Source: an uncultured bacterium
GTDB taxonomy: Bacteria; Fidelibacterota; Marinisomatia; Marinisomatales; UBA1611
Direction: 5' to 3'
DNA length: 64,000 nt
Assembly: GCA_943788175.1 (NCBI GenBank)
Contig: CALSPG010000007.1
Coordinates: 64,001 to 128,000 of the forward strand
Shown here: positions 19,401 to 52,823 of the stretch, in pieces
How the letters are laid out: every line of letters begins with the position of its first letter
Position numbering within the stretch: position 1 is the stretch's first letter
Made by a program: the position numbers and the translations under genes
The notes under the pieces: generated by a model
What the model was told of the DNA's origin: nothing
Databases searched by the model: none
Seen by the model: the letters and a program-made list of their open reading frames with translations, nothing else

Positions 19401-20223
19401 GTCAGACTTAAATGGAACTGTTTATTTAGCAATTGACGATGACTATTTATATTTTGCCGCAGATGTCATTGATGATGATTATCACTTTGGTGAAGGTAAT
19501 TGGTGGGATCAAGACGCTCTTCAATTGTTTCTAGGTTTATATGATTCAAGGGGTCCAAAACATTCAGCAATAAAAAGAGGTGAAGAGCCTGATTATGTAA
19601 TTTATGCGAATGAAAACACATTGCAATTAGACAATCCTGGAAATGTGAGTATAGGTAACTCTGATGAAGAACATTATCACTTTGAAATGTTCGATCCAGA
19701 TTATGTTGTAGAGGGTAAGATTTCTCTAGATACTCTTGCTGCATTATCAGGAGACCAAAGGTTTCATCCAGCTAATGGAATGAAAGTACCAATTGATATT
19801 TACTTTCATGATAATGATAATGGAACTTGGGAAGGTAATGTTGGTTACTCAACGCTTTCGAATGATCAACAGTGGAATAATCCAGGTGAGTGGTCATTTA
19901 CATGGATTGGTGATCGGTCTACAGTACTAGGAAACGATAATGAAGCACCGATTGCTCCTGAAGTATTCGCGCTTTACCCAAATTATCCTAACCCATTTAA
20001 CCCTGTTACAAATATCAACTTTTCACTTCCTGAGAACCAGAAGGTAAATCTTGGTATTTACAGTGTTACAGGTAGATTAGTTGAAAGCTTATTAAATGAA
20101 GACAGGGTCTCTGGTTTCCATTCAGTACAGTGGAATGCGGGAAGACATGCTTCAGGCGTTTATTTTTATCGATTAGATGCTGGGGCTAATTCAAAAACTC
20201 AAAAAATGATTTTATTAAAATAA
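16416..20223 (+). pseudogene. Large secreted multi-module glycan-binding protein (CBM-like domains, 3 tandem repeats, CBM9/DOMON-like domain, T9SS-like CTD); split by a +1 frameshift as assembled, probably one intact gene
   Basis: ORF 16416-18614 carries the signal peptide and ORF 18541-20223 the CTD; removing one A at 18589-18590 gives continuous ...LTYVQQDAWTGGGFN...; no catalytic motif recognised. Confidence 0.8.
16752..17930 (+). repeat. Three tandem ~387-bp intragenic repeats (~128-aa module)
   Basis: Copies start at 16752, 17139 and 17544 (ATTATTTTTTCTGGCACTTTTGGTGG...); copies 2 and 3 appear nucleotide-identical over 387 bp; copy 1 is patchily diverged. Confidence 0.97.
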
Positions 20224-28966: not shown

Positions 28967-30757
28967 ATGAAATTTATTTTAATAGTCTCCATTTTTTTAA
29001 ATATTGCTTATTGCAGGCAATACAGGGGTGCAGAATTGCGAACGACAGAATCTTTTCTTTATGGTAGGTTTGATGCTTGTTTTAAGCCAGCTCAGGGCGA
29101 TGGTTTAGTTTCATCTTTTTTCACTTACAATGATGACAACCCTAATACACCTTGGGCGGAGATAGACGTAGAGGTTTTAGGTGTTTATAATAATGTTGTT
29201 GATTTTAATACAATAACAAGGGGTCAAGATTCACATATTAGACAGCACTATGTGGATTTTAACCCACACCTGAATTTTCATACTTATAGCTTTGAATGGA
29301 CACCCGATTATGTAGCCTGGTTTATTGACAATGATGAGGTCTATAGGCAAACAGGGTCTCATGTAGACTCTCTTTATGTATCACAAAAAATTATGATGAA
29401 TATTTGGAATCCAGTATATACGGATTGGGTTGGCTCTTGGGACTCTGAAATCTTACCAAGATTTTCTTATTATGATTATGTTAGTTATTCAGCATATACG
29501 CCCGGGACAGGGGATAATGGTACCGAATCTAATTTCACATTTTCTTGGAAAGATGATTTTGACACTTTTGATGATAATAGGTGGGAAAAAAGTGATGATC
29601 ATACCTGGGGAGGGAATCAATCCCTTTTTATTGATGAGAATATTTATTTTGAAAATGGTAATCTAATTTTATGTCTTACAGATGAAGATAATATTGGGTA
29701 TGTAGATAATTACCCACCCAAAGTTCTTTGGGCCAGACAAAATGAAGATATTTTAACTATTCGGTATAGTGAAGAAATAGATGAGTCCAGCGGTGTTGAA
29801 TTAAGCAATTATAGTTTATCAGGGGTTACATTTACAAATGCATTAATGCATAATGATCAAAGAACTGTTGATCTAACAATGGATCAATTCATCTTAAGCT
29901 CTACTGCTATGGGGATATTTAATGCTCAGGATGATAGTGATAATCTTGCCAGTACAAATATAGTTTGGATTGATATTCCTCAACCTTTGGGGGATACTAT
30001 AAAGATTAATACTGGAGGTGGCCCTGCTGCTGATTTTTTACAAGATCAGATTTGGGGCCCGGATAAAGAATATGGGCATGTTGCAGGTAATTTTCAATTC
30101 GCTAGTGATGATGTAGACATTCAAAATACTGAGAATGATGATATTTATAGATCATCATTAAACAGGGTAGCTCTCTATAAAATTAGAGTTAAACCCGGGG
30201 TCTATTCATTGGGACTATCCTTTTCCGAAAATCACTATGACAATGCGGGAGAAAGAGTTTTTGATATTTTTGTTGAAGGCAATCTCAAGGTAGATGGGCT
30301 TGATGTTCTTGATCATGTCCCAGCTTTTTCTTTATATAATATTAGTCTTGATAATATTGAAGTTCTAGACGGGGTCTTAGATATTCATCTATCTGCAGAT
30401 ATATATGGTGTGGGATATGCTGCTGCCGGAACATTTATTAATAGTATTGAGGTCATGCTTGAAAGTTCACTTTCAAATGACACAAATGTGTTGAATAAAT
30501 TTTCATTGCAAAAACCATATCCAAATCCATTTAATAATCAAATTTCGATTCCCATAATTAGCAATATTAAAAGCAAAGCACTTATAGAAATATTCGATGT
30601 AAATGGTAGAAAAGTTGAAACCATATATAATGGGATAATTTTACAAGGGAAGACTGAATTTAAATGGGATGCAAAATTTTACTCGTCTGGGACTTATTTG
30701 ATATACTTACTTATAAATGGAGAGAAATCGTATGAAAAAATCATGCTTATTAAATAA
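28967..30757 (+). CDS. GH16 licheninase-type (circularly permuted) + Ig-like + malectin domain + T9SS-like CTD
   Basis: YRGAELRT..YGRF, EIDVE, post-core WKDDFD..RW..LILCLT; malectin-like INTGG..FSENHY..GERVFDIFVEG; YPNPFN CTD. Confidence 0.88.
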   Translation: MKFILIVSIFLNIAYCRQYRGAELRTTESFLYGRFDACFKPAQGDGLVSSFFTYNDDNPNTPWAEIDVEVLGVYNNVVDFNTITRGQDSHIRQHYVDFNPHLNFHTYSFEWTPDYVAWFIDNDEVYRQTGSHVDSLYVSQKIMMNIWNPVYTDWVGSWDSEILPRFSYYDYVSYSAYTPGTGDNGTESNFTFSWKDDFDTFDDNRWEKSDDHTWGGNQSLFIDENIYFENGNLILCLTDEDNIGYVDNYPPKVLWARQNEDILTIRYSEEIDESSGVELSNYSLSGVTFTNALMHNDQRTVDLTMDQFILSSTAMGIFNAQDDSDNLASTNIVWIDIPQPLGDTIKINTGGGPAADFLQDQIWGPDKEYGHVAGNFQFASDDVDIQNTENDDIYRSSLNRVALYKIRVKPGVYSLGLSFSENHYDNAGERVFDIFVEGNLKVDGLDVLDHVPAFSLYNISLDNIEVLDGVLDIHLSADIYGVGYAAAGTFINSIEVMLESSLSNDTNVLNKFSLQKPYPNPFNNQISIPIISNIKSKALIEIFDVNGRKVETIYNGIILQGKTEFKWDAKFYSSGTYLIYLLINGEKSYEKIMLIK

Positions 30758-35500: not shown

Positions 35501-36108
35501 TTGTTTTAGCCCAAAATGTAGAATCTTTTTTAGCTCTTTTCCCCGAGACTTCTAATCTATATGGTTCTTTTAATTTTGGCCTTAGTGGAGGAGGAGAAGA
35601 AATTAGTTTGTATGATGCTTCTGATGCGTTAGTTGATCAAGTTGAATATAATGATGATCTACCTTGGCCAACTGAGCCAGATGGGAATGGGCCCACTCTT
35701 GAGCTTATGCATCCAGACTCATTAAATGAATTTTCCAGTAGCTGGGGGTCTTCCGCTGGGAATGGAACACCAGGTTATATAAATAGTATATTTGAAACTT
35801 TAAAAAACACAGAGGATGAAATTAATCCCTCTGATCGTATTTTATATTCTGTTTTCCCCAACCCATTTAATTCACATGTTAAAATTATTTTTGATATTGT
35901 AAAAATGAGTCAAATCAATTTCACCATTGTTAATATATTAGGTGAAAAGGTACGCACATTTGAAAATCAAAATTACTCTAGTGGATTAAACACTTTAGTT
36001 TGGGACGGTAAAAATAATTTTGGACAAGACTTAAGTACTGGTATTTATTTTTGCAGGTTAAAATCAAAAAATATTGATAAGAGCATTAAACTTCTTTACG
36101 TAAAATAA
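32575..36108 (+). CDS. CotH kinase-family protein with lamin-tail domains and T9SS-like CTD
   Basis: LNEIVSSN..DWIELYN and INEINYN..DWVELYN lamin-tail motifs; LRNSGND, YNLREK, NRDWPGNN, WILYDTDFG; FPNPFN CTD. Confidence 0.88.
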   Translation: MLKKIINSLIIFSFSFSQNVQLNEIVSSNQNTYYDEDGDTPDWIELYNSTSNNISLNNWGLSDDIEDPFKWRIPNVILAPEDFLMILASDKDRVDMISEWETIIDIGDSWYYFVASQEPVSNWNQLSFNSSSWSIGPSGFGYGDGDDNTEITNTVSVYLIKPFSITDFDQIKKLAFHIDYDDGFVAYLNGNEFARDNIEGTPPAFNQGTLTWREAEMINGGSPSLFWVDSAEAWVNEGPNVLAIQVHNFNSSSSDLTCIPFFTLGRNSHSGSAPTIAEEIDLPLSILHSNFKISSNGETILMTDSDSVLVDSIYTGILQSDVSIGRINDGENYGLFLEPTPAETNGEESVLGVLNDITFSQESGFYNLAILPVSITTSDEDAAIYYTLDGSEPTINSILYTNNPILISENRVLRATSFKANWISSPIKTATFILESGDNNFPTIFLSTNPDNFFDFNTGIYEMGPNASQDYPHFGANFWEDWEKPIFLEVLETDGTYFSAPAGVKIFGGWSRGQSQKSLSLFARSQYGASEFNYRFFPDLELEDFQSLVLRNSGNDWSFTMLRDGFMTSIFHDVDLDVQSYRPMLVYLNGEFWGLYNLREKVNEHFIAGHHPVDPDEIDLIEVQTANEGSIDDYDELLDYVTQSDMTDPIVFDSLSKWIDIDNHIDYNIAQIFIDNRDWPGNNIKYWRPQQNDGLWRWILYDTDFGFGIPWNGQGYDYNTLLFALEENGPGWPNPPYSTFLLRKLFENSDYRDRFVNIFCDRLNTVFKSAFLNGRINEMASYIQDIIPFHRGKWPNSAQDWNYHIEILENFANNRSLYVRQHLSSFFNLSSPALVTFISSLGGEIKINSIFPDSYPWAGYYYPSVPIEIEAIPEDGYRFIGWAQYSDSTAKMKVQISNNSMITALFEEIPGDATIDLVINEINYNSSDQFDTGDWVELYNNGSERIDISGWYFTDENEDNKFIFPENSNIDPNAYIVLAQNVESFLALFPETSNLYGSFNFGLSGGGEEISLYDASDALVDQVEYNDDLPWPTEPDGNGPTLELMHPDSLNEFSSSWGSSAGNGTPGYINSIFETLKNTEDEINPSDRILYSVFPNPFNSHVKIIFDIVKMSQINFTIVNILGEKVRTFENQNYSSGLNTLVWDGKNNFGQDLSTGIYFCRLKSKNIDKSIKLLYVK

Positions 36109-41084: not shown

Positions 41085-41420
41085 ATGCAGCAACATTATT
41101 TGAAAGTTTTGGACATAGGTCATAATGGAAAATCGCCTGATGAAGCAATGATGATCCTTGAGACGACAGTAAGTCAATGCTCTTTTGAAAACAAGATTAA
41201 AGCTATAAAAGTCATTACCGGTCATGGTTCCGGGAAATTACGAAAAATTGTAAGGGCATGGTGTAATGATCAAGAAGGTCGGTTTAATAAAGTAATATAT
41301 GGTGAAGACTATGATATGTTTAATAAAGATGCAGTTAATATGAGGAGTGATTGCAACCAACCTCTTGATAATGATTTTGGCAGGAAAAATGCAGCAGTAA
41401 CATATATATGGTTGAGGTAA
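41085..41420 (+). CDS. Stand-alone Smr/MutS2-like domain protein
   Basis: LDIGH, KVITGHGSGKLR, N.AVTYI. Confidence 0.75.
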   Translation: MQQHYLKVLDIGHNGKSPDEAMMILETTVSQCSFENKIKAIKVITGHGSGKLRKIVRAWCNDQEGRFNKVIYGEDYDMFNKDAVNMRSDCNQPLDNDFGRKNAAVTYIWLR

Positions 41421-41421
41421 C

Positions 41422-42009
41422 ATGGTAAAAGCAAAACATATTAAACTTATTCTATTAATATTCGCTGGGGTTCATTTATTTAATTGTGCGGGTACAAATT
41501 ATAAAAAAATGAGTATTGAAGACCCTCGTTCGCTATTAGCGATTCAAGATTCGCTAATACTTGAAAACAAAAACAATCAAAATATTATGGATGCTCTAAT
41601 GACAGCTAATAACAATATGGGTAAAAACTATCTAATAAAAGGAGAATTGTTTTTAGCTATTGATCATTTTAAAAAAGCTATTTCTTTAAATAGTGAAAAT
41701 AAATTCTCTAAATATAGTTTGTTAATTGCTGAGGGCCGTGTGCTGATAAAAAGAGGAAATAAAAATGGTATGTGGGATGCTATTGAAAAGTTTTCAAAAG
41801 CTTCAAGTTTTTTCCCAGACAAAGGGGAGCCCTTTTATTGGATGGCTATTTCTTATACAAAACTAGGCGATACTGAATTTGATTTAATTCTTGAATCTTA
41901 CGAAAAATCTTTATCTTTGGAGTTAAGTGAAAATATTAAGAGTGAGGTTGAAAAAAAGTATGAAAAAGCAAAAAAGCGAAAACAAAAACTTGATTCATTT
42001 TGGAAATAA
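41422..42009 (+). CDS. TPR-repeat lipoprotein
   Basis: Lipobox LFNC; TPR-like helices AIDHFKKAISLN, AIEKFSKA, PFYWMAISY. Confidence 0.75.
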   Translation: MVKAKHIKLILLIFAGVHLFNCAGTNYKKMSIEDPRSLLAIQDSLILENKNNQNIMDALMTANNNMGKNYLIKGELFLAIDHFKKAISLNSENKFSKYSLLIAEGRVLIKRGNKNGMWDAIEKFSKASSFFPDKGEPFYWMAISYTKLGDTEFDLILESYEKSLSLELSENIKSEVEKKYEKAKKRKQKLDSFWK

Positions 42010-42063: not shown

Positions 42064-42092
42064 TTGACACGCGATTGATTATTAAGTAAGAT
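42064..42092 (+). promoter_or_regulatory. sigma70-type promoter of the motor operon
   Basis: TTGACA (42064-42069) - 17 bp - TAAGAT (42087-42092); GAGG RBS before ATG 42148. Confidence 0.8.
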
Positions 42093-42147
42093 TGCTCCCA
42101 CTCTGCATTGTAAGATGCAAAGTGACTTAAAATATCCGAGGTAAGAT

Positions 42148-43311
42148 ATGAGATCACAATTGAGCTTTATAAGGCGAGTTGTTAGCTCGCTGTACGTTCT
42201 ATTGCTTTTAGGGCATTCTGTGTCTTTAGCTGCAAAGTACGACTTAAAGGGCACGGTAATAGGTGCTGATGGTAAAGTTAAAGTCGAACTAGCAGGCACA
42301 AAAAAGGATGCGCGGACTAAAAAAAATGGTGCGTTTAAATTAAGTAATGTTCCTGAAGGGGAATATACGCTTCAGGTTTTTCAGGATAAGAAAGTTATCC
42401 ACGAACAATCTATTAATGTAACGGAAGATGACGACAACTTAGAAGTTAAAGTTGGAGCTTCTTCTATTGCTCCTGTTGAAAAAACTGTTTCATCATTAAC
42501 ACCAGCTTCAGTAGCAACATCTGCAAATCCAATTGTCGAAAGTTCGCCAATTCCGCAAACTGCTGAGTCTTCTGGCGGAGCTTCAAATGACTTCATTGTA
42601 AATGAACTTAATTTTGAGATTAAAAAATTAACTGCTGAATTCAAGCACCTTAGTAGGGAGATGGATGATCTTAAGGCTTTAAGTAAAATGTGGATTAATC
42701 CTTTAACTATTTATTCTAAAGAAATAATTTTAAAAAATGGTAGTACTGTTTTTGGTAAAATTGTTTATCAAGACGATAAGTCCTTAAAAGTTGAAACTTT
42801 AGTGGGTTATCTTATCATAAAGCGTGATGAGGTAGTTCGAATAGTAGACAATGTAATTACTGAGGATCAGCAAGAATATGTTCCGGAGCAAATTAGAGAA
42901 AGTTATGCCCCTCCACCTATGCCAAAATTAACAGTTCCAAAGTATACTTCATCAAGTATGTCAAATAGGGATGCTGGCCAAAAATTTTCTGCTAATTGCG
43001 TCCTCATGGGAAATATTACTGAAAAGAAAGACAGCCAAGGTAATATTGTTTTTAATGGTGAAATTAAAAACATCGGTGGAAGAAGAGCTGATTTTGTTAA
43101 AATGGATTTTGTTTTTAGAAAAAATTGGAGCGGCGAAACCCGAACGCTCACTACTTTCATTCAAGGTTCATATAATACTTTTGACAGCGGTATTGTCTCT
43201 GATGCGAGTTTGCTTCCAGGTGCTCTCGGAAAATTCGAATTATATGTTCCACAAGATTTTGGATCATTCATAGGATATTCCTACGTTATTGATTGGGAAG
43301 AGTATCAATAA
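42148..43311 (+). CDS. Exported multidomain protein (carboxypeptidase-regulatory-like domain, coiled coil, small beta-domain, C-terminal Ig/FxLYD-like domain)
   Basis: Signal peptide ending SLA; LKGTVIG..GAFKLSNVPEGEYTL; heptad segment ELNFEIKKLTAEFKHLSREMDDL; IILKNGSTVFGKIV; GEIKNIGGRRADFVK. Confidence 0.7.
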   Translation: MRSQLSFIRRVVSSLYVLLLLGHSVSLAAKYDLKGTVIGADGKVKVELAGTKKDARTKKNGAFKLSNVPEGEYTLQVFQDKKVIHEQSINVTEDDDNLEVKVGASSIAPVEKTVSSLTPASVATSANPIVESSPIPQTAESSGGASNDFIVNELNFEIKKLTAEFKHLSREMDDLKALSKMWINPLTIYSKEIILKNGSTVFGKIVYQDDKSLKVETLVGYLIIKRDEVVRIVDNVITEDQQEYVPEQIRESYAPPPMPKLTVPKYTSSSMSNRDAGQKFSANCVLMGNITEKKDSQGNIVFNGEIKNIGGRRADFVKMDFVFRKNWSGETRTLTTFIQGSYNTFDSGIVSDASLLPGALGKFELYVPQDFGSFIGYSYVIDWEEYQ

Positions 43312-43324
43312 AAATATTCCAAAT

Positions 43325-44203
43325 ATGTTTAAATACTTTTACATAATATTATTTTTTTCAATGTCTATGGCGGTTAGTCAGAATGGCGCTGGCGATACAT
43401 TTTTCCTAGATATGGGCGTTGTTATCCAGTCAGAAAACAAAGGGATAGCATTGCCTGACTTTTCTTCTCCGACACCTAGGCTAAAATCAAATAATATTGT
43501 CAAAACAATAGAATCTAGTTCTGTTTACATGGCGACAACATCTGATATGATTTCATCCTTGGATAGAATCACATCCCAAGTTACAGATATTGAAAAAGAT
43601 TTTGAATCGAAACTAGACATGCTAGAAATCGAAAACTTTAATTTGAGAAATCAAATTACTGGACTCAAAAAAAGGTTGAACGCTGAAATCTTAGATGCAA
43701 GTCTTATCGATGTTAATTTAGAGAAACCGCAAAAAGAATCATCACTTCCTTATGAGAACATCACAAAAAATTTAGAAATGAATGAAGTTGTCGCGCATTC
43801 TAATGATATTTTAACTAAAAGATCAGTTTTACAAAGATTTGATTTTGATATTTTTACTGAAGGCGTTATTCACTATAATAATGAAAAATATTACGATTGT
43901 ATTAGTAGTCTTAGCGTGCTGCCTGTGGATGATAATAGTAATAAAAACGCTAGTAAAACTTTATTTCTATTAGCTGATTCGTATGAAAACATGGGAAGAT
44001 ATAAACAAGCTCTTAATCATTTAGATAGATTGTCATTGGCTAATGATGATGAGTATTCAGATTTAATTTTATTTAAAAAAGGTATAATTTACAGAAACAT
44101 TGGCATGATGATTGAAGCGCAGAAAGCGTTTCAGGAGCTAGTTGAATCATTTCCCAAAAGTGAATTTAAAATCTTTGCTGAAGAAGAAATCCAAAATATA
44201 TAA
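43325..44203 (+). CDS. Exported coiled-coil + TPR protein (CpoB/YbgF-like architecture)
   Basis: Probable start MFKYFYIILFFSMSMAVS (ORF track begins at 43289); coiled coil LDRITSQVTDIEK..LRNQITGLKK; C-terminal TPRs ending AFQELVESFPKS. Confidence 0.75.
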   Translation: MFKYFYIILFFSMSMAVSQNGAGDTFFLDMGVVIQSENKGIALPDFSSPTPRLKSNNIVKTIESSSVYMATTSDMISSLDRITSQVTDIEKDFESKLDMLEIENFNLRNQITGLKKRLNAEILDASLIDVNLEKPQKESSLPYENITKNLEMNEVVAHSNDILTKRSVLQRFDFDIFTEGVIHYNNEKYYDCISSLSVLPVDDNSNKNASKTLFLLADSYENMGRYKQALNHLDRLSLANDDEYSDLILFKKGIIYRNIGMMIEAQKAFQELVESFPKSEFKIFAEEEIQNI

Positions 44204-45582
44204 TGAGAAATATTAAAAACATTATAATCTTTTTTCTTATTACTTCAAGTATGATTTTCGCATCTGCCAGGGTTGCATACACTCGACCAGGGCTTATGAT
44301 GCGAATTCCAACATCAAGCATTCAAAAAGCTCCGTACATATTTAGAACGGGTTTTGGTGTTGAGTTGCATAATTTTGATCCAATAAATACCGCAAAAGGT
44401 GTTTATTTTGACATGGAATTTGGCAAGGGTTTTTCAGCTGGTTTTTCAGCTGTCCAAGGTGGTGATACTACCTCTTTAGACCTAATTTCAAAATCTCAAT
44501 ATTCGCCACAAGTAGAATTCGGTTTTCACTTTCAGCAAAGAGTCTTTGTTTACAATGATATTTCTCTATCTGCTGGATTGCAAGATATTGTTTTTCAAAA
44601 CAACCAAGATGACGAACAAGTTTTAAGTTTAAATACTGATCTATTGTCTTTTTTTCTAGTTTTAGCTAGTGAAAAAGACTTAGGTGATTATAAAATGAGC
44701 ACTTTCATGGGCTTCGGTACAGGAGGCCTTGGTCCAATGGATAGTGTCAAAGTAATAAGTGATTCAACGCAAACGGCAAATGCGGGTGTCTTTGTTGGAT
44801 TCTTATTGAAAACACCCTACTTCGGTAGAAATGGTGGAATGGATATTGTGGGTGAATTCGATGGAACAGGTGTCAATGTGGGACTCCGCATCCCCCTTAC
44901 CTCGGATTACCGCCTGAACCTTGGGTTCACCCACATAGAGCGTTTACCAAGTTGGAAAACGCGATATTGGACAGGCCATCCTGCTTTCACAATTGGATTT
45001 GATATGGCAGTCCCTAGAATTGGAGGGAGTTCGAGATCTTCAACTAGTGGGCCATCAAACCAGCCTTTATCAACCGCAAACCTGGCGTTTTCTAATGATG
45101 GAACTGTGCCAGCATATATGGATTCAACTATTGCTATGGCAGATTTCACAGTTATGTCATTAAGGGATTCCATGTTGATGATGAACAATGAAATGCGAAA
45201 TTTAATGGTTCAGCTTTCAGCCTTGGAGCAGGAGTCACAATTTCTTGTTGACTCATTGAAACAATTAAAACTCGGAAAAAATGTTCAAGAAAAAAATATG
45301 AATGAATCAATGAGACATCTATCACGGAGTCTTCGCTTCTTTTATGCTGGTGATTTTCGTGAAGCTTTGAAAGAAGTTGATTTATCATTGGAACTGAAAC
45401 CTGATTTAGCTCTAGCTTACGCTAGACGTGGTTCTATATATTACAAATTAGGTGATGTTCAAAGAGCCACAATTAATTGGAATTTAGCCCTTAGGTTAGA
45501 TCCCGAATATGATGATGTAAGAAATATTTTGAAGGCGCTTCATGAGAACCGTCTCAAAGATGCTAATTTATTTGAGGAGTAA
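44203..45582 (+). CDS. Outer-membrane beta-barrel (YjbH-like) fused to coiled coil and TPRs
   Basis: Signal peptide; GLMMRIPT start; alternating amphipathic strands ISLSAGLQDI, FMGFGTG, IVGEFDGTGVNVGLRI; coiled coil; TPR ALAYARRGSIYYKLG..NWNLALRLDP. Confidence 0.7.
   Translation: MRNIKNIIIFFLITSSMIFASARVAYTRPGLMMRIPTSSIQKAPYIFRTGFGVELHNFDPINTAKGVYFDMEFGKGFSAGFSAVQGGDTTSLDLISKSQYSPQVEFGFHFQQRVFVYNDISLSAGLQDIVFQNNQDDEQVLSLNTDLLSFFLVLASEKDLGDYKMSTFMGFGTGGLGPMDSVKVISDSTQTANAGVFVGFLLKTPYFGRNGGMDIVGEFDGTGVNVGLRIPLTSDYRLNLGFTHIERLPSWKTRYWTGHPAFTIGFDMAVPRIGGSSRSSTSGPSNQPLSTANLAFSNDGTVPAYMDSTIAMADFTVMSLRDSMLMMNNEMRNLMVQLSALEQESQFLVDSLKQLKLGKNVQEKNMNESMRHLSRSLRFFYAGDFREALKEVDLSLELKPDLALAYARRGSIYYKLGDVQRATINWNLALRLDPEYDDVRNILKALHENRLKDANLFEE
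44844..44937 (+). other. Long intragenic RNA hairpin (GC-rich patch)
   Basis: 44847-44861 pairs with 44921-44935 (10 WC pairs then 5 incl. G-U), continued by GG/CC and CAGGTG/CGCCTG; run of C-ending codons atypical for this window. Confidence 0.6.
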
Positions 45583-45585
45583 TTT

Positions 45586-46374
45586 ATGGATATTGCATTA
45601 ATTATAGGTGTTGTACTCGGTTTAGCTGCTATGATTGGTAGTATTGCTTATGCTCTATTTGTTGAGGGGTCAGCAGGGGGTTTTGGTAATTTTCTATCAG
45701 CACCTAGTTTTGGAATTGTATTTGGAGGTATGATAGCCTCTATTTTTGTTGCATTTCCGATGCCACACGTGGTTGCGCTAGGAAAAGCTATTGGAGCAGT
45801 GCTTAAACCAGCAGATGATAAGATGGGTGGATTAGTCGACGAAGCAGTTGAAGTTGCAGATGTCGGACGAAAAGGAGCAGCTGATCTCGAAAAATCAGTT
45901 GATAGTATTAAAAATTATTTTTTTAAAGATGGCGTGCAAATGGTTGTTGATGGCTACTCTTTAGACGAAATCACAGAAATTATGGAAACCAGAATTGAAT
46001 ACAGAGAGAAAAGGGAAAATGTTCAGAAATCCATGCTTAAATCTATGGGCGACCTTGCTCCTGCTTGGGGTATGGTAGGAACTCTAATTGGTTTAGTACT
46101 CATGTTAGCTGGTTTTGGTGGAGAAGGTGGAGCAGATAACCTTGGTGGTGGTATGGCGGCAGCGCTCATTACGACTCTTTACGGAGCTGTATTTGCCAAC
46201 TTGTTTTTTCTTCCAATGGCAGATAAAATGGGTAATAAAACTACTCAAACATCTATGTCAGCAGCGCTTTTAGTAGAGGCTGCTCGATTGATACATCAAA
46301 AGAAGCACCCATTAATCGTGCGAGAAAAATTAAACTCTTTCATTCCTCCTGGAGAGTGGAAATCAGAGGGCTAA
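45586..46374 (+). CDS. motA: Flagellar-type stator A subunit (MotA/PomA)
   Basis: Four TM segments; IVFGG, GRKG..LE, FFKDGVQMVVDG, APAWGMVGTLIGLV, MAAALITTLYG. Confidence 0.95.
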   Translation: MDIALIIGVVLGLAAMIGSIAYALFVEGSAGGFGNFLSAPSFGIVFGGMIASIFVAFPMPHVVALGKAIGAVLKPADDKMGGLVDEAVEVADVGRKGAADLEKSVDSIKNYFFKDGVQMVVDGYSLDEITEIMETRIEYREKRENVQKSMLKSMGDLAPAWGMVGTLIGLVLMLAGFGGEGGADNLGGGMAAALITTLYGAVFANLFFLPMADKMGNKTTQTSMSAALLVEAARLIHQKKHPLIVREKLNSFIPPGEWKSEG

Positions 46375-46383
46375 GGTTCTTTT

Positions 46384-47265
46384 ATGGCTGGAGCAGAATT
46401 CAAAAAAGGTTATAATAAAGGTTTCGCAGCTGGAGCGGACTCTGTTGAAGAGGGGCTTCCTGGATGGTTTGGAACGTTTGCAGACATGATGACTCTATTG
46501 TTTGCTTTTTTTGTATTATTAGCTGCTATTTCAACAATGGACCCTGTAAAGTTACAAGAGATGTCTAATTCTGAGGGTAAATCTCTTGGTAGTAAAATCA
46601 AATCTTCTGGAAAAGCCGAACTTGAAGGAGAGTTTGAGCCAATTAAAAATTTAGCTGCCATGAAAAAAGAAATGGAAGAAACCATTGAAGAAATGAAAAA
46701 AGAAAGCCCTAAAGGAGATCCTCCCATTGATATTCAAACTAGTTCAAAAGGGCTAATAGTGAATATTAAAGGTGATTACGCTTTCCCGATTGGTAAGGCA
46801 TCAATGAAAGAGGAGTTAAAAGGACTTTTAGATGAAGAAATAATACCTAAAATCCAAAATAGTCCATTCCAGGTAGAGGTCGCTGGGCATTCAGATTCTG
46901 ATAGAATGCCAAAAAAATGGAGGAAAACTTTTGCAACTAACTGGGAACTTTCTGCAGCAAGAGGTGCAAGTGTTGTAAGATATATGATAGATAAAGGGAT
47001 ACCCGCTCCAAGGCTATTAGCAGCTGGATACGGACCTTGGGCTCCGCACGGACTCGATAGTGTAAAAAAACAAAATCCGATGTGGAACCCGTTAACTCTG
47101 ACTTGGAAAAAGGCAGTTTTAACTAAAGATGGTAAAGAAATGCCAACGGTTTTGGGTCTTAATAAAAATGAAAAAATGAAGTCTAAAAACAGAAGAATTC
47201 AAATTACTTTTTTAAATCCGCCACATCATGGTAAGGGGCGGTCAGCAACTAGTTATGATGAATAA
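46384..47265 (+). CDS. motB: Flagellar-type stator B subunit (MotB/PomB) with OmpA-like peptidoglycan-binding domain
   Basis: WFGTFADMMTLLFAFFVLL with the essential Asp; VAGHSD, NWELSAARG, AGYG, NRRIQI. Confidence 0.95.
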   Translation: MAGAEFKKGYNKGFAAGADSVEEGLPGWFGTFADMMTLLFAFFVLLAAISTMDPVKLQEMSNSEGKSLGSKIKSSGKAELEGEFEPIKNLAAMKKEMEETIEEMKKESPKGDPPIDIQTSSKGLIVNIKGDYAFPIGKASMKEELKGLLDEEIIPKIQNSPFQVEVAGHSDSDRMPKKWRKTFATNWELSAARGASVVRYMIDKGIPAPRLLAAGYGPWAPHGLDSVKKQNPMWNPLTLTWKKAVLTKDGKEMPTVLGLNKNEKMKSKNRRIQITFLNPPHHGKGRSATSYDE

Positions 47266-47286
47266 ATACATACCGAGGAGTATTTC

Positions 47287-49098
47287 ATGATAAAAACAGG
47301 TTTAAATCTTAAAAAGAAGTTAGCAGTATTTATGCTAGCTGGTCTTTTAGTTGGGCAAGGTTCTGGCTACTTAGCACAGAAGCTAATGGTTGAAAATAAT
47401 ATTAGAGAGAGAGTTAAAGATGCTTTATCTAAAATTATTGACAATAATAAATACGTTATAAATGTTGATATAGATTTAGAGATTAGCGATGAAGTCGAAG
47501 AACAAATCACTGTATTGGCTGAAAGAGAATCAAGGCGTTCAGTAGTTGAAGATTCAAATGAAGAAACCGAAACTGAGAAATCATTATCAAGTATTCAACA
47601 ATCTATAGAATCAGAAGAAACATCTGAAAGGTCGAGTTATTCAGTGGGACTACCTATACCTGGGTTTGAGATGGACTTCACTAATTCAAATAAAAGTAAT
47701 AAAAAATCTGAAGAACCGAGACCACCTGTGATGTCTGTTGAAACTAAAAAACCTATTCAGGTTTCAAGTGTTGACAGGGACGCTAGCGAACCTAGGGTTG
47801 ATAAGGTTTTATCTAGAACTCGTCCTTCAAGAGCAGAAATTAAAAAAATGTATATTAGCTTGATTTTACAAGAAGGTGCTGCACCAGAATTAATTGAAAA
47901 TATTCGTCAATTGACAATGGCTGCCGCAAAATTTGATAGAAATCGTGGTGACAAGCTTACTATTATGACAGCAAGTTTTAGAGAAAAAAGAGATCAGCGC
48001 TCCGCAGAGCAGATTATGTTGAAAAACATCGCTGAAAAAATTGAATTATTAGAACAAAAAAGAGAATACGAAGAAAACACGCAAGATGCTACATGGAAAG
48101 ATGAGTTAACTAAATACAGGGATGAAGAAACTGCTAGACGAGAAGATGATAGAAGATTTTTCGAAGGTCAGATATCGCAATTAGAGCAACAGGCCAAAAA
48201 CAGAGCTTATAATCAAGAAAAACAAGATATGCTGTTGAGAGACTCTCTGAAGTTAAAAAAATTGAATGACGAAATTATGGCGCTTAAGTCAATGCTAAGG
48301 TCTTCTGAAAGAAGAGATAGTTTAAAAACAATCAGTAAGCAAGAACGAATTGATTCTCTAAGGTATGTTAGTCTAAGCAGTGAGTTAGATGAATTAGCAA
48401 AATCTCTTCAAGTGGCAGTAAAAACCAAATCAAAAGATGAAGAAGTTATAGCAAAGCGTAAGATTCAGGCTGAGATGGAAGATAGAGAAAAGCAAAAAGA
48501 AGAAAGAGAAAAAGAAATTTCTGATAAGATTCGTGAGCTTGATAGCGTCCAAGAAGAACTTGATCAGCTCCATGAAAACATGGAAAAAGAGAGCGGGAAT
48601 ACATTTATTATTTTAATTGCTCTAGGCGCTATTGTCTTTTTATTAATAATTGCATTAATTTTTATTTTATTAAAAAACAATAATAGGCAGGCTCCTGTCC
48701 CTCCTTGGATGATGCCTCCACCTCCTCGTAAACCAAGGAGAAGAAAAAGAGAAACTTCAAAAGAAAAAAAACCTATTGAAGCAAAAAAAATTGAAGAGCC
48801 AGCAGTTGTCGTACCTGAGCCAAAGCCTGAGCAAGCTGAAGTAAGCCAACCTGCTGAAAATACTTCTGGGCAAGAAAGTTCTTTACCATCAAGTGACGAT
48901 GATCCCGATGTCGTTCGTAGTGAAATAAATGATATCCGGAAATCAGTTGTATCCATGAGCGTTGGTCAGCCAGATAGAACTACAACTATTGTTAAGGAAT
49001 GGTTAGAACAACCAGAGCCTACACCTACAGCAGAGCCTGAGCAAGAATCTGCTGAAGATCCAGCAGATGGTAGTGATTCTGAAGAAAAAGAAAAGTAA
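47287..49098 (+). CDS. Remodelled FliF-like ring protein (RBM3 + long coiled coil + TM + FliG-binding tail)
   Basis: ENNIRERVKDALSKII..VINVDIDL and IENIRQLTMAAAKFDRNRGDKLTIMTASF match the two halves of FliF RBM3; TM at residues 440-462; tail QPDRTTTIVKEWL; directly upstream of fliG. Confidence 0.8.
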   Translation: MIKTGLNLKKKLAVFMLAGLLVGQGSGYLAQKLMVENNIRERVKDALSKIIDNNKYVINVDIDLEISDEVEEQITVLAERESRRSVVEDSNEETETEKSLSSIQQSIESEETSERSSYSVGLPIPGFEMDFTNSNKSNKKSEEPRPPVMSVETKKPIQVSSVDRDASEPRVDKVLSRTRPSRAEIKKMYISLILQEGAAPELIENIRQLTMAAAKFDRNRGDKLTIMTASFREKRDQRSAEQIMLKNIAEKIELLEQKREYEENTQDATWKDELTKYRDEETARREDDRRFFEGQISQLEQQAKNRAYNQEKQDMLLRDSLKLKKLNDEIMALKSMLRSSERRDSLKTISKQERIDSLRYVSLSSELDELAKSLQVAVKTKSKDEEVIAKRKIQAEMEDREKQKEEREKEISDKIRELDSVQEELDQLHENMEKESGNTFIILIALGAIVFLLIIALIFILLKNNNRQAPVPPWMMPPPPRKPRRRKRETSKEKKPIEAKKIEEPAVVVPEPKPEQAEVSQPAENTSGQESSLPSSDDDPDVVRSEINDIRKSVVSMSVGQPDRTTTIVKEWLEQPEPTPTAEPEQESAEDPADGSDSEEKEK

Positions 49099-49115
49099 GG
49101 ATAAGAGGTTAAGAT

Positions 49116-50060
49116 ATGATTACAGATTATAATCGCCTATCAGGGCTTCACAAAGTCGCAATTCTTTTCTCAGTGCTTGGTGAGAGTCTTGCTATGTCTC
49201 TTATTAAAGGCTTGTCTCGTACAGAAGTTCGAAAAATACGAGCAACTATTCGCGAAATGGGTAATGTTTCCTTTACTCTAAAAAGACGAGTTATGGAGGA
49301 ATTTTATTTTGGGTTTCTGAGCGAACAATTCTCTGATGAAAGTGATAATAATGAAGACGAAGGACCTATTAAGCCTTTTGAGTTTTTAACTGAAATGACA
49401 GATGAGCAACTTATTGCATTATTAGCAAATGAAGATGTCCCAGTTGTAGGAATTGCATTAGCTCAATTAGACGCAGGTAAAAGAATGACTATTTTAGAGC
49501 GAATGAAGCCTGAACAAAAAGGTAAAGTCCTTATTGAACTTGGTAGTTTACAAGAAATTCCATTAGAAGCTATTGTAGAAGTAGCTGGGAAGCTTAAAGA
49601 AAAAGCATCTTATCTACCAAAACCAGTAGAGTTTTCTAGAGGGGGAGCGAAAGAAATTGCTGACTTAATAGGAGAAATGGATGCAGACGAAGGTGAAAGA
49701 TATATGCAAACTCTTCAGAATGAAAATTCAGAGCTTTATAAAGCTGTAAAAATGCTTGTTCTAACGTTTGAAGATATTTTAGATAATTTCCCAGATGGAA
49801 TTTTAAGAGATCTTTGTAATAGTGTTGAGCTTGATTCTTTGTCTATGGCTATGAAAGGCATAGATCAAGAGGTCGTAGATAGGGTAGTGGGTAATTTGCC
49901 TCAAAAGAAACAAGCCATGTTTGAACCAGTAGAGGGGCCTAAACCAAAAAGAGAAGTTGATGATGCTAGAAAAATTATTGTTTCTGCAGCGAAAGAAATG
50001 GAAAAAGAAGGAGCTTTTAATTTAGCTGATATGATGGGCGGCGGAGAGATGGTAGAGTAG
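49116..50060 (+). CDS. fliG: Rotor protein FliG (divergent)
   Basis: LSGLHKVAILFSVLGE N-domain, GG linker (SRGGAKEIADLI), LTFEDI, LSMAMKG, GP..REVDDARKIIV..EKEG C-domain. Confidence 0.92.
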   Translation: MITDYNRLSGLHKVAILFSVLGESLAMSLIKGLSRTEVRKIRATIREMGNVSFTLKRRVMEEFYFGFLSEQFSDESDNNEDEGPIKPFEFLTEMTDEQLIALLANEDVPVVGIALAQLDAGKRMTILERMKPEQKGKVLIELGSLQEIPLEAIVEVAGKLKEKASYLPKPVEFSRGGAKEIADLIGEMDADEGERYMQTLQNENSELYKAVKMLVLTFEDILDNFPDGILRDLCNSVELDSLSMAMKGIDQEVVDRVVGNLPQKKQAMFEPVEGPKPKREVDDARKIIVSAAKEMEKEGAFNLADMMGGGEMVE

Positions 50061-50087
50061 CATTATTGTTCTACAATTAATTGTTTT

Positions 50088-50115
50088 AAAAAAGCCCCGG
50101 TATCGGGGCTTTTTT
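50088..50115. terminator. Bidirectional intrinsic terminator between fliG and ppdK
   Basis: AAAAAAGCCCCG-gtat-CGGGGCTTTTTT between convergent genes. Confidence 0.93.
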
Positions 50116-50126
50116 AATTAATATAA

Positions 50127-52823
50127 TTAAACTAATTCAGCTTGTGCGGCTGAAAGTCTTGCAATAGGAACACGGTATGGAGAGCAGCTAACATAATCTA
50201 ATCCATTATTTCTGCAAAAATGAACAGAATCTGGGTCACCACCATGTTCACCGCAGATACCAATTTTTAAAGATGGATTAACTTCTCTTCCATACTGAAC
50301 TGCCATTGTTACCAATTTACCTACACCTTTAACATCTAAACTTTGAAATGGATCTCCTGGTAAGATCTTCCGATCTAAGTATTCAGGTAAAAAAGAGCCT
50401 ATATCATCTCTGCTAAAACCATATGTGGTCTGAGTTAGATCATTGGTTCCAAAACTGAAAAACTCTGCATGCTCCGCAATTTCATCTGCAGTCAAGCATG
50501 CTCTTGGCAGTTCAATCATTGTACCAACTAAATAGTTCAATTTTAAATTAAATTTATTTTCAACTTCTGAAGCTACAGTACGAATTATTTTTTCTTGGTC
50601 TACATATTCTGTAACAGTTCCTATTAAAGGTATCATTATTTCTGGTAAAACATTTAGACCTTCGTTTAATAGTTCTGCAGTTGCTTCCAAGATAGCGCGT
50701 GCTTGCATTTCAGTTATAGCAGGATAAGCAATTCCCAATCGGCATCCACGGTGACCAAGCATTGGGTTTAATTCATGAAGACTTGCTATACGTTGGCTTA
50801 TAACTGACTTGTCAATTCCTATATTATTTGCTAATTCAGTTATCTGCTTATCATCTAAAGTAATAAATTCATGAAGAGGAGGGTCTAATAGTCTAATTGT
50901 TACTGGCTTTCCTTCCATCGCTTTTAAAATTTCTTTAAAATCTTCTTTTTGAAATGGTAATAATCCCATTACAGCTTTTCTTCTGTTATCATCATTTTCT
51001 GACAGTATCATTTTTCTCATAGCAAGAATTCTTTTTTCATCAAAAAACATATGCTCAGTTCTACAAAGACCAATTCCTTCAGCACCAAATTTTATTGCTT
51101 GTTGAGCATCTTCAGGACTTTCAGCATTTGTTCTTATCTTTAACTTTCTATATTCATCTGCCCAAATCATTAATTCTTTATATTCATTATTTTTATCTGG
51201 ATCTGCTGGTATAAGATCTAATTGGCCAAGATAAACTACACCTAAGGTACCATTCATTGTTATCCAGTCACCTTCATTTATTACTTTACTGCCAATTGTT
51301 AGAGTCTTTTTTTCTAAAGATATATTGATTTCGTTACATCCTACAATACAGCATTTTCCCCACCCTCTTGCAACCAATGCAGCATGAGAAGTCATACCTC
51401 CTCTAGCAGTTAAAATTGCTTCAGCAGCATGCATTCCATGAACATCTTCTGGCGAGGTTTCTTCTCTAACAAGAATTACTTTTTCGCCCTTAGCATTCCA
51501 TGCCTCTGCATCATCAGCTGTAAACACCACTCTTCCTTTTGCTCCACCTGGTCCAGCTGGAAGACCTTTTGTCAATTTTATAGCTTTATCTTCACTAGCC
51601 TTATCTAAAGTTGGGTGCAGTAATTCATCAAGTTGATTTGGGTTGACTCTCATTAGAGCAACTTTTTTATCAATCATCTTTTCTTTATACATTTCAACAG
51701 CTATTTTTATTGCAGCTACGCCATTACGTTTTCCTACTCTGGTTTGTAGCATCCATAATTTCCCCTCTTCTATTGTAAACTCGATATCTTGCATGTCAGA
51801 GTAATGTTGTTCAAGTCTGTTTTTTATATTAAAAAGCTCTTCATATATTTTTGGCATTAAATCTTCTAATGAAGGTAGGTGATTTGTTTCTTCTGTTTTT
51901 GTGTCTTCATTCAATGGGTTAGGAGTTCTGAGTCCAGCAACGACATCTTCACCTTGCGCATTAGTAAGCCACTCGCCAAAGAATTCATTTTTGCCTGTAG
52001 CAGGGTTTCTTGTAAAAGCAACGCCAGTTGCTGAATCTTCCCCAGTATTTCCAAAAACCATAGTTTGAACATTTACAGCTGTTCCCCATTTTTCTGGTAT
52101 ATTTTCAATTTTTCTATAACTAATTGCTCTAGAACCATTCCAACTTTTAAAAACGGCTTCTATTCCGCCCCATAATTGATCTTCAGCATTATCTGGGAAT
52201 TCTGACCCGAGGGATGTCTTTATCTCATTTTTAAATATTTCTATAACCTTTTTCCAATCATTTTCAGATAAGTCGGTATCATTTTCTAAATTGTTGTTAG
52301 ACTTGTAAGTAGATAGATGATGTTCAAGTTTATGTCTAATTCCTTTATCTCCATCTGGTTCGATACCTGCAGCTTTTTCCATTACTACATCAGAATACAT
52401 TGTTATAAGTCTTCTATATGCATCATAAACAAATCTAGGGTTATTAGTTTTTTCAATAAGCCCGGGTATTGTCTCACTTGTTAATCCAATATTTAGCACT
52501 GTTTCCATCATACCTGGCATAGATTGTCTTGCTCCAGATCTTACTGACAAAAGTAATGGGTTGTCTGCATCGCCAAATTTTGTGCCCATTATGGATTCAA
52601 CTTCAGATAATGATTTTTTTACTTCACTAGTTAGGCTTTCAGGGAACGACCTATTATTTTTGTAATACTCTGTACAGACTTCCGTGGTAAGAGTAAATCC
52701 CGGGGGGACAGGAATGTCTAGCAAATTCATTTCTGCTAGATTTGCGCCTTTCCCTCCAAGTAAATTTTTCATATCAGCTTTACCATCTGCCTTACCATCA
52801 CCAAAATTATATACATACTTCAT
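50127..52823 (-). CDS. ppdK: Pyruvate, phosphate dikinase
   Basis: LLGGKGANLAEM, LLSVRSGA, phospho-His GGMTSHAA, GIGLCRTEHMF, FSFGTNDLTQ, GICGEHGG. Confidence 0.98.
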   Translation of the reverse strand: MKYVYNFGDGKADGKADMKNLLGGKGANLAEMNLLDIPVPPGFTLTTEVCTEYYKNNRSFPESLTSEVKKSLSEVESIMGTKFGDADNPLLLSVRSGARQSMPGMMETVLNIGLTSETIPGLIEKTNNPRFVYDAYRRLITMYSDVVMEKAAGIEPDGDKGIRHKLEHHLSTYKSNNNLENDTDLSENDWKKVIEIFKNEIKTSLGSEFPDNAEDQLWGGIEAVFKSWNGSRAISYRKIENIPEKWGTAVNVQTMVFGNTGEDSATGVAFTRNPATGKNEFFGEWLTNAQGEDVVAGLRTPNPLNEDTKTEETNHLPSLEDLMPKIYEELFNIKNRLEQHYSDMQDIEFTIEEGKLWMLQTRVGKRNGVAAIKIAVEMYKEKMIDKKVALMRVNPNQLDELLHPTLDKASEDKAIKLTKGLPAGPGGAKGRVVFTADDAEAWNAKGEKVILVREETSPEDVHGMHAAEAILTARGGMTSHAALVARGWGKCCIVGCNEINISLEKKTLTIGSKVINEGDWITMNGTLGVVYLGQLDLIPADPDKNNEYKELMIWADEYRKLKIRTNAESPEDAQQAIKFGAEGIGLCRTEHMFFDEKRILAMRKMILSENDDNRRKAVMGLLPFQKEDFKEILKAMEGKPVTIRLLDPPLHEFITLDDKQITELANNIGIDKSVISQRIASLHELNPMLGHRGCRLGIAYPAITEMQARAILEATAELLNEGLNVLPEIMIPLIGTVTEYVDQEKIIRTVASEVENKFNLKLNYLVGTMIELPRACLTADEIAEHAEFFSFGTNDLTQTTYGFSRDDIGSFLPEYLDRKILPGDPFQSLDVKGVGKLVTMAVQYGREVNPSLKIGICGEHGGDPDSVHFCRNNGLDYVSCSPYRVPIARLSAAQAELV

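Follow-up and report, generated by a model that had tools for sequence, protein, structure and literature searches.

A putative non-flagellar rotor-stator operon joined to outer-membrane proteins in Marinisomatota/Fidelibacterota (SAR406)

The 64,000-nucleotide stretch of contig CALSPG010000007.1 analyzed here (the window), from an uncultured bacterium of the Fidelibacterota (assembly GCA_943788175.1), contains an operon at 42148-50060 with seven close-packed genes on the plus strand. It encodes relatives of the flagellar stator proteins MotA and MotB, a cut-down FliF (g6) and a FliG-like rotor protein, together with three exported proteins (g1, g2 and g3), one of which is a predicted outer-membrane beta-barrel. 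We regard it as likely that this operon, hereafter the module, encodes a self-contained non-flagellar rotor-stator machine of the cell envelope. Since rotor and stator are joined to outer-membrane proteins and no flagellum accompanies them, the module is probably an ion-driven envelope machine not described before. The coordinates of g1-g3, MotA, MotB, g6 and FliG come from open reading frame calling on the window and are given in window numbering; they show gaps of only 3-21 nt from g3 on and bear out the seven co-oriented, tightly packed genes reported by the initial annotation, which was made from the sequence alone.

Proteins encoded by the module

The stator genes encode a MotA-type A subunit of 262 amino acids (aa) at 45586-46374 and, 9 nt after it, a MotB-type B subunit of 293 aa at 46384-47265, both on the plus strand. 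MotA matches the Pfam family MotA_ExbB with 95.3 bits, and MotB matches MotB_plug with 54.4 bits and OmpA with 39.5 bits, all of them above the curated cut-offs. MotB shows a transmembrane helix with the channel aspartate D34, a plug and an OmpA-like peptidoglycan-binding domain. The best NCBIfam models of MotA are MotP and PomA, which are of the flagellar type, and the scores on the NCBI equivalog models are under the cut-offs: 177.8 versus 394 for MotP, 154.7 versus 341 for PomA and 110.5 versus 283 for MotD. Roles in the stator are given, in passages of two papers, for the channel aspartate of MotB and for R90, E98, P173 and P222 of MotA (PMC12505986; PMC7564593). In our alignments the four MotA positions correspond to R95, E102, P159 and P210, and D34 of MotB is aligned to E. 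coli D32. R95 and E102 of MotA and D34 of MotB are kept in 64/64 orthologs, and P159 and P210 in all aligned MotA.

The genome of the window contains three genes of the MotA/ExbB family: the MotA of the module, an ExbB accompanied by two ExbD and TonB, and the MotA of a second MotAB pair. This second pair, MotA/MotB-like and orphan, encodes proteins of 292 aa and of 241 aa, the shorter one having plug and OmpA domains; it is outside the window, at G000:C5:55275-58940 (L125 3275-6940), directly upstream of a gene for a 705-aa protein with Big_9, cadherin-like and PKD domains. Some relatives show MotA-family genes with frames of 273-283 aa that are unassigned to either MotA class, and in one genus with genomes of about 1 Mb only a gene of ExbB size is found.

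The FliG-like rotor protein (49116-50060, plus strand, 314 aa) shows the N, M and C domains of FliG, with 51 bits on FliG_N, 34.8 bits on FliG_M and 74.2 bits on FliG_C, each above its Pfam cut-off (PF14842, PF14841 and PF01706). Its profile matches solved FliG structures at E 3e-33, and its score on TIGR00207 is 101.5 bits (cut-off 226.7). Only the glutamate of the FliM-binding motif EHPQ is kept: the site is E-D-V-P in the window and E-S-P-T, E-P-E-R, E-E-P-R and E-E-S-R in four other paralogs, and E-H-P-Q is intact in E. coli FliG and in canonical FliG from this phylum. Because EHPQ is reduced to its glutamate, the rotor would have no docking site for a switch. The Gly-Gly hinge is kept, and K264 and R281 of E. 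coli FliG align with K247 and the invariant K264 of the FliG-like protein. A deletion of three residues adjoins the nearly invariant E270 and E273, and the stator contact thus appears, from the alignment, to be remodelled yet very strongly conserved.

The gene for g6 (47287-49098, plus strand) encodes 603 aa and matches only the C-terminal FliF family, PF08345 (YscJ_FliF_C), with 31.4 bits versus a cut-off of 23.8. It shows no match to PF01514, the family of RBM1-RBM2, which is not matched elsewhere in its own genome either, and scores 21.7 bits on TIGR00206 (cut-off 129.75); a canonical FliF, that of the relative G153, reaches 194 bits on PF01514. The hydrophobic stretch at the N-terminus of g6 is short, about 12 residues, and shows G, A or S in front of a conserved Gln; it looks more like a signal peptide than a membrane helix. 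Downstream there is an RBM3-like domain of the form alpha-beta-beta ... beta-beta-alpha-beta, which includes the RGD motif of FliF and is interrupted by a disordered insert with an invariant P-I-P-G motif. It is followed by a helical spacer of 137-209 residues (range over the orthologs), one membrane helix (about 438-464), a proline/lysine-rich cytoplasmic linker, and a conserved C-terminal helix pair (540-574) that aligns with the part of FliF that binds FliG. A terminal lysine run is shown by the g6 of many orthologs and is absent from the window copy.

When the g6 profile is compared with the PDB, only four FliF sequences match at E <= 0.03, the best at E 5.5e-4 in the RBM3 region; the second-best FliF match also aligns the C-terminal FliG-binding helix, which alone gives E 52. 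A Foldseek search of the PDB with the g6 model puts FliF MS-ring/RBM3 chains in all of the top 18 places (E 2e-6 to 1e-4), after which the E-value jumps to 0.07. The prediction of a complex between the N domain of FliG and the g6 tail scores 0.44 versus 0.00 for the best control, the runs share at least 79% of the contacts, and the partner shows a pLDDT (the per-residue model confidence) of at least 63. The mark used for these predictions is reached by 58/80 solved complexes and 2/110 mismatched pairs, and passes at 0.60 or below include only seven of the 80 solved complexes and both passing mismatches. The model gives weak support for binding of the g6 tail to the FliG N domain, and the pass may reflect mere likeness because FliF-FliG complexes have already been solved. 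The MotA, MotB, FliF-like and FliG genes named by the initial annotation are all confirmed by Pfam matches above cut-offs; since the NCBI equivalog scores are all well under their cut-offs, we take these four proteins, as far as sequences tell, to be relatives of flagellar proteins and not orthologs. In the protein atlas, a cluster of 417-aa FliF-like proteins with mostly Poribacteria labels shows PF08345 in 99% and PF01514 in 80% of its members; it is no more than a lead (score 0.81), to what may be one more short FliF away from the usual flagellar context.

The three remaining genes encode exported proteins. The gene for g1 (42148-43311, plus strand, 387 aa) encodes a signal peptide, a variable immunoglobulin-like CarboxypepD_reg domain, a linker, a coiled coil and two beta domains: a small one and, at the C-terminus, a highly conserved one whose last residues are DWEEY(E/Q). 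In an alignment of 31 orthologs g1 shows 66 invariant columns, nearly all past residue 150, and its core has no relative among solved structures. The gene for g2 (43289-44203, plus strand, 304 aa), an optional member of the module, encodes an exported protein with a coiled coil and tetratricopeptide repeats (TPR); its likelier start is an internal ATG at 43325, 14 nt past the g1 stop. The matches of g2 are TPR_6, with 39.8 bits, and weak ones to BamD, PorW/SprE and YbgF, all far under the cut-offs; the match to tol_pal_ybgF is at E 2.9e-4 and 21 bits (cut-off 90). The gene for g3 (44203-45582, plus strand) encodes an outer-membrane protein of 459 aa whose AlphaFold model (mean pLDDT 72.3) shows a barrel at about 45-271, a disordered linker, a 75-residue helix (308-382) and TPR (385-458). 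The best Foldseek matches of g3 are the 12-14-stranded barrels of FapF, NanC and OmpG (E 1e-5 to 3e-4), and its tail matches designed TPRs. The mature N-terminus of g3 has a conserved motif, R-V-A-Y-T-R-P-G in the window copy, and 71 columns are invariant in the 31 orthologs. The three proteins had been described as exported coiled-coil/TPR proteins, one of them a barrel: export, the coiled coil and TPR of g2 and the barrel and TPR of g3 stand, but g1 has no TPR.

Flagellar genes, distribution and selection

The genome of the window (G000; 2.27 Mb, 12 contigs, 33% G+C, 92% complete) shows no match to FHIPEP (FlhA), FliP, Flagellin_N, Flg_bb_rod or YscJ_FliF, and six flagellar-family controls are positive in four flagellated reference genomes. 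It has no match to FliMN_C either, the N-terminal FliM family PF02154 being outside this search, and none to CheW, whose control is positive in eight reference genomes. FliG_C is matched once in the genome, by the gene of the module. Flagellar genes are probably absent from this genome, and the statement that the operon is accompanied by no flagellum genes, made for the window, also stands past it in whole-genome profile searches with positive controls.

A search with the seven proteins covered 76 related loci. The order g1, g3, MotA, MotB, g6 and FliG is kept in each of the 50 loci whose sequence extends 7.3 kb or more upstream of FliG, and it is also found in four further genomes. This order persists where the FliG-like protein is only about 40% identical (L072-L077). 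In the closed 3.4 Mb genome of G153 the module is between coaBC and a Rce1-like gene, i.e., with housekeeping flanks. Since g2 is present in only 29 of the 50 loci and truly absent in 18, where the gap between g1 and g3 is only 17-47 nt, the conserved unit is six genes with an optional seventh.

Near-identical loci are found in metagenome-assembled and single-cell genomes labelled Marinimicrobia, Neomarinimicrobiota or Fidelibacterota (SAR406). A search of 1.84 billion representatives with the g3 profile gives about 40 relatives, some full-length and some fragments. The genome records reached for them carry a name of the phylum or are unclassified, and the others are short contigs, evidently misbinned or mislabelled, that are assigned to SAR86, Alphaproteobacteria, Thaumarchaeota, Sulfurimonas and Lentisphaeria. 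Several divergent g3 representatives have no genome record, and one of them is on a metagenome contig of 7.4 kb with the order g1-g3-MotA-MotB and a g3 about 30% identical. As far as found by these sequence searches, the module appears to be specific to Marinisomatota/Fidelibacterota (SAR406). A lead from the protein atlas to g3 relatives in Margulisbacteria was rejected: the genome concerned, L096, is G219 in the phylum group of the window, it carries the whole module with the same downstream gene, and a phylum search centred there returns the same places as one centred on G000.

The phylum sample contains 201 genomes, each at least 80% complete. FliG_C is matched in 163 of them and FHIPEP above its cut-off in 50. 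Cross-tabulation of the per-genome tables shows a FliG_C match in 49 of the 50 genomes with FHIPEP and in 114 of the 151 without it; two or more FliG_C matches are found in 39 of the 50, a rough count, as matches are not copy numbers. In G153, 0.5 Mb from the module, there is a locus with fliF (534 aa; the protein that matches PF01514 with 194 bits), fliG (370 aa), fliH and fliI, adjoined by a MotA-family gene. G030 and G036 each contain a FliG ortholog of 56-61% identity plus a canonical FliG of 23-24%. Since flagellated members carry the module beside a separate fliF-fliG-motA, the module is, on sequence grounds, best described as a paralogous system and not a relic. The profile of the paralog gives 311-382 bits on two FliG-like proteins of the module, 119-141 bits on canonical FliG of the phylum, 74.6 bits on E. 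coli FliG, and 117-118 bits on FliG of Thermotoga, a partial chain, and Aquifex; because canonical FliG of the phylum scores about like that of Thermotoga and Aquifex, nothing points to a recent duplication inside the phylum.

Selection on all seven genes is purifying, with ratios of nonsynonymous to synonymous substitution rates (dN/dS) of 0.007-0.26. Versus the relative with unsaturated dS the range is 0.007-0.11, FliG being unscored there as the locus ends inside the gene, and versus two further relatives it is 0.02-0.26. MotA (0.007-0.03) and MotB (0.008-0.04) show the lowest values of the operon, followed by the FliG-like protein (0.03-0.04), g3 (0.03-0.06) and g1 (0.04-0.08), and g2 is the fastest-evolving gene (0.11-0.26). 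The initial annotation had argued for a distinct, selected, non-flagellar machine instead of a decaying relic, and had named three tests of it: absence of flagellar genes from the whole genome, conservation of the cluster in related genomes and selection that is not relaxed. The genome searches, the order kept in every locus with enough flank and in the closed genome, and the dN/dS values all agree with it.

Proposed mechanism, rival explanations and known systems

If the operon works as a rotor-stator machine, the RBM3 domains of g6 would, by fold and sequence homology, build a ring along the periplasmic side of the inner membrane, like RBM3 of FliF in the S ring. The C-terminal helix pair of each g6 would hold one FliG-like protein, giving a cytoplasmic FliG ring without FliM/FliN, a step suggested by homology and weakly by the complex prediction. 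MotA5B2 units would be anchored to peptidoglycan through the OmpA-like domain of MotB; ions would pass D34, and the observed R95 and E102 of MotA would push the C domain of FliG. The ring would turn one way, with no switch and no chemotaxis input (the genome gave no match to FliM/N or CheW, and the FliM-binding motif lacks HPQ). From the anatomy of the proteins, work may leave the ring on the periplasmic side, where the g6 spacer and the conserved loop motif would meet g1, g2 where present, and g3; the latter would be anchored in the outer membrane by its 12-14-stranded barrel, with coiled coil and TPR reaching down. In this way ion-motive energy would reach the outer membrane, a task that TonB, Tol-Pal, GldLM and Agl-Glt accomplish by different routes. 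The outputs put forward in the initial annotation, namely secretion, surface motility or movement of an adhesin, are conjectural. It is possible, although rather doubtful, that this is the first known use of a FliF/FliG rotor outside the flagellum: a switchless ion-driven engine whose helical cage works the barrel/TPR protein like a cam, gating or moving an item at the surface.

Several points weigh against a rotor-stator machine of this kind. We infer the ring, its rotation and the contact of g6 with g1-g3. The g6 model is of low confidence (mean pLDDT 65.9; predicted template modeling score, pTM, 0.28), and is compatible with either a single spacer helix of 20-30 nm or a hairpin half as long. 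When the profiles of g6 and of one canonical FliF from the phylum are compared, only a 32-residue RGD segment aligns, with a probability of 3% and E 0.013. In the FliG-like protein, E. coli D288/D289 fall in the three-residue deletion, where the alignment near the gap is uncertain, and R297 is unmatched; its stator contact cannot be assumed, from the alignment, to work as in E. coli. The coupling has no worked-out geometry because the wall stands in the way: an outer-membrane protein cannot simply be pulled through peptidoglycan by a ring turning beneath it. The absence of flagellar genes is probable and not proven because the genome is 92% complete, and RNA libraries, which contain the operon (see below), may also contain DNA and give contigs without strand or ends. 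Finally, some lineages can do without the module: FliG_C is matched in none of the 16 genomes of the genus with genomes of about 1 Mb and, in one family, in just 7 of 23.

Four other explanations were weighed. A flagellar relic, or a second stator/rotor set serving a true flagellum, would be in line with the homology of all four motor proteins to flagellar parts and with the presence of FHIPEP in part of the phylum, but it is hardly credible: the gene order is kept at about 40% identity of the FliG-like protein under strong purifying selection, most genomes without FHIPEP still show a FliG_C match, the module is always joined to the non-flagellar g1 and g3, in flagellated genomes it is apart from flagellar loci that own fliF, fliG and motA, and the FliM contact motif is lost. 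A static envelope structure, with ring and stator as scaffold, tether or sensor and no sustained rotation, is improbable; it would account for the lack of a rod, bushing or known output shaft, for the remodelled stator-contact segment of FliG and for motion being nowhere evident in the data. However, the residues for ion flow and torque are invariant (D34 of MotB, R95 and E102 of MotA) or kept (P159 and P210), and the lowest dN/dS of the operon, that of MotA and MotB, is hard to square with a passive scaffold.

The two remaining explanations give the module the place of a known envelope motor. In a Tol-Pal-like role, which we consider rather unlikely, the module would tether or constrict the outer membrane or keep its integrity, with a flagellar-type motor in place of TolQR. 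The coiled coil and TPR of g2 and of the g3 tail show the build of CpoB/YbgF, g2 has the weak tol_pal_ybgF and BamD matches, MotB has an OmpA/Pal-like domain, and no TolQ-like fourth gene is found beside the three MotA/ExbB-family genes of the genome. TolB_N is matched neither in this genome nor in its family (0/9), and in only 34/201 phylum genomes, with 21-34 bits; the control is positive in E. coli and Caulobacter but negative in Bacteroides, so the model may miss TolB outside Proteobacteria. Against it, the B subunit is of the MotB type (plug and OmpA) and not of the ExbD/TolR type, a FliG or a FliF-like ring is foreign to Tol-Pal, and all TPR matches are far under the family cut-offs. Moreover, since the genus with genomes of about 1 Mb has neither the module (0/16) nor TolB_N (0/16), the module cannot be the sole answer of the phylum to the need for Tol-Pal. 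As an observation apart, the scarcity of TolB_N across this diderm phylum indicates either that Tol-Pal is widely missing or that TolB is too divergent for the model.

It is decidedly improbable that the module powers, or is a cog in, type IX secretion or the movement of adhesins secreted by that route, in place of an unfound GldLM/PorLM. The genome contains 77 matches to C-terminal sorting domains and SprA, which is matched in 201/201 phylum genomes. GldM is not found by TIGR03517 in 13 genomes or by GldM_1st (PF12081) in 201, searches that did not extend to GldL and GldN; the sole FGE-sulfatase protein is a VanX fusion with 48.6 bits versus the GldK cut-off of 350 and no gldLMN-like neighbors, and g2 and MotB weakly match PorW/SprE and PorE, respectively. 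Nevertheless, SprA is present in 16/16 genomes of the genus without the module and in 23/23 of the family in which FliG_C is found in seven, so type IX secretion occurs in lineages lacking the module. No reference genome gave a positive control for the GldM searches, which may miss a divergent GldLM, and the PorW and PorE matches reflect generic TPR and OmpA similarity, far under the cut-offs. Neither the type IX nor the Tol-Pal link is supported, because these ideas fail on distribution or lack controls; either may still be part of what the module does.

The rotor-stator reading can be compared with known systems. The four motor proteins are homologous to the core of the flagellar motor (FliF, FliG and MotA5B2/PomA5B2), with which the module shares the RBM3 fold and FliF-like C-terminal end of g6, the three domains of FliG, and a stator that keeps the channel aspartate, two prolines and two rotor-contact charges. 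It differs in that no export gate (FlhA, FliP), rod, hook, filament or FliM/FliN was found in its genome, in the lack of RBM1/RBM2 and the presence of a 137-209-residue helical spacer before the membrane helix of g6, in the loss of HPQ and the deletion at the stator contact of the FliG-like protein, and in its three exported proteins, unknown in flagella. Periplasmic stator scaffolds, such as the TPR proteins PflA/PflB of Campylobacter and the collar proteins of spirochaetes, are TPR/coiled-coil proteins beside MotAB-type stators around a complete flagellum; the module, in contrast, has in g3 an outer-membrane barrel. With Tol-Pal it shares an ion-driven motor of the 5:2 type, an OmpA-like peptidoglycan binder, periplasmic proteins of CpoB/YbgF build and the transfer of energy to the outer membrane that is proposed here, and it differs by the MotB-type B subunit and the FliG/FliF-like ring, with no TolA or TolB found. 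GldLM/PorLM, from the same superphylum, is a 5:2 rotary motor that acts across the periplasm on a complex in the outer membrane, as is proposed for the module, and genomes bearing the module are rich in type IX cargo. However, the periplasm-spanning part belongs to the motor B subunit in GldLM and would belong to the FliF-like ring protein in the module, GldL and GldM show no homology to module proteins, and SprA is found in lineages without the module. The Agl-Glt gliding machinery of Myxococcus combines a stator-type motor, Agl being of the TolQR type, with TPR proteins and outer-membrane barrels, and to our knowledge Agl has no FliG or FliF parts. All ion-driven 5:2 motors known to us use other adaptors: the flagellar C ring, TonB, TolA, GldM, Glt or Zorya.

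The literature search found no publication describing the module, in agreement with the earlier statement that no described system has this composition. In the abstract and passages of a 2025 mBio survey of MotAB (PMC12505986), which places AglRS among non-flagellar transporters, neither the phylum nor a FliG-linked non-flagellar stator is mentioned, and its supplementary genome list might include such a stator. With no export gate, rod or filament, a ring of FliG and FliF coupled to a barrel in the outer membrane would add a new type of adaptor and be the sole reuse of the flagellar rotor. If so, a rotor-stator module can exist and be selected without a type III export apparatus, which bears on the evolution of the flagellum, with the module as a derived offshoot or a pre-flagellar survivor, and makes it a natural test case for a modular origin. 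SAR406 is a very abundant and nearly uncultured ocean lineage, in which 163 of the 201 sampled genomes show a FliG_C match and the operon is present in RNA libraries of at least four studies. Motility surveys by marker genes such as fliG can be misled by the FliG-like paralog; a survey of genomes from oxygen-deficient zones required two of fliG, fliM and fliNY, guarding against such an error (PMC10359470).

Operon limits, transcripts and other genome features

A sigma-70-like promoter candidate is located on the plus strand at 42064-42092, 56 nt 5' of g1, with TTGACA, a spacer of 17 nt and TAAGAT (10/12 positions). The near-consensus promoter of the initial annotation is thus there as a site, but its kind is no more frequent than chance would give (37 promoter-type matches found versus 33.7 expected from shuffles). 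In one RNA library (X2) the contig depth is 2-4 upstream of 42002 versus 22-66 within the operon, a weak hint for a promoter. The promoter is only plausible because such matches are no commoner than in shuffles. At the other end, the intrinsic terminator hairpin at 50086-50117, with no strand assigned, is flanked by an A run and a T run and has -20.7 kcal/mol and z -5.67, with 0/200 shuffles as stable; a simple terminator scan did not list it, and the strong terminator reported at the operon end is nonetheless well founded. The hairpin is common to the operon and the convergent gene encoding pyruvate phosphate dikinase (50127-52823, minus strand) and can serve both.

Fourteen runs on record as RNA, from several studies, contain the operon stretch, and contigs from four RNA libraries, one from each of four studies, match the operon at 95-100% identity: one of 2,690 nt spans MotA-MotB-g6 and another of 1,634 nt spans g6-FliG. 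Coverage gaps in runs X6 and X10 and differences in contig depth were not counted as evidence. These contigs support expression of the operon in the sea. In RNA-library contigs of two studies there is an in-frame insertion of 12 nt at 48813, within the part of g6 that encodes its cytoplasmic linker of low complexity.

Immediately before the operon, at 41085-42009, there are a gene encoding a Smr-domain protein (111 aa) and a gene encoding a TPR protein of 195 aa. The pair is kept there in many relatives belonging to the same order and not in distant lineages, and both genes are probably outside the module. The window also contains six type IX sorting-domain sites: about 140-382, 3127-3369 (minus strand), 6334-6555 (minus strand), 19984-20211, 30518-30745 and 35851-36084. 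SprA of this genome, outside the window at G000:C7:328244-334275, is in three frames of 232 aa, 117 aa (with one internal TGA) and 1791 aa; in relatives SprA is a single frame of about 2100 aa, and the copy is either disrupted or affected by an assembly error. An ABC transporter at G000:C1:255342-259065 (L123 11343-15066, minus strand) has GldA, GldF and GldG as best models, all under the equivalog cut-offs. The sole FGE-sulfatase domain of the genome is fused to a VanX-like D-Ala-D-Ala dipeptidase at G000:C1:250084-251424 (L123 6085-7425). This fusion may be of interest, as the only cultured member of the phylum, Fidelibacter multiformis, described as non-motile, depends on exogenous muropeptides (PMC11652737).

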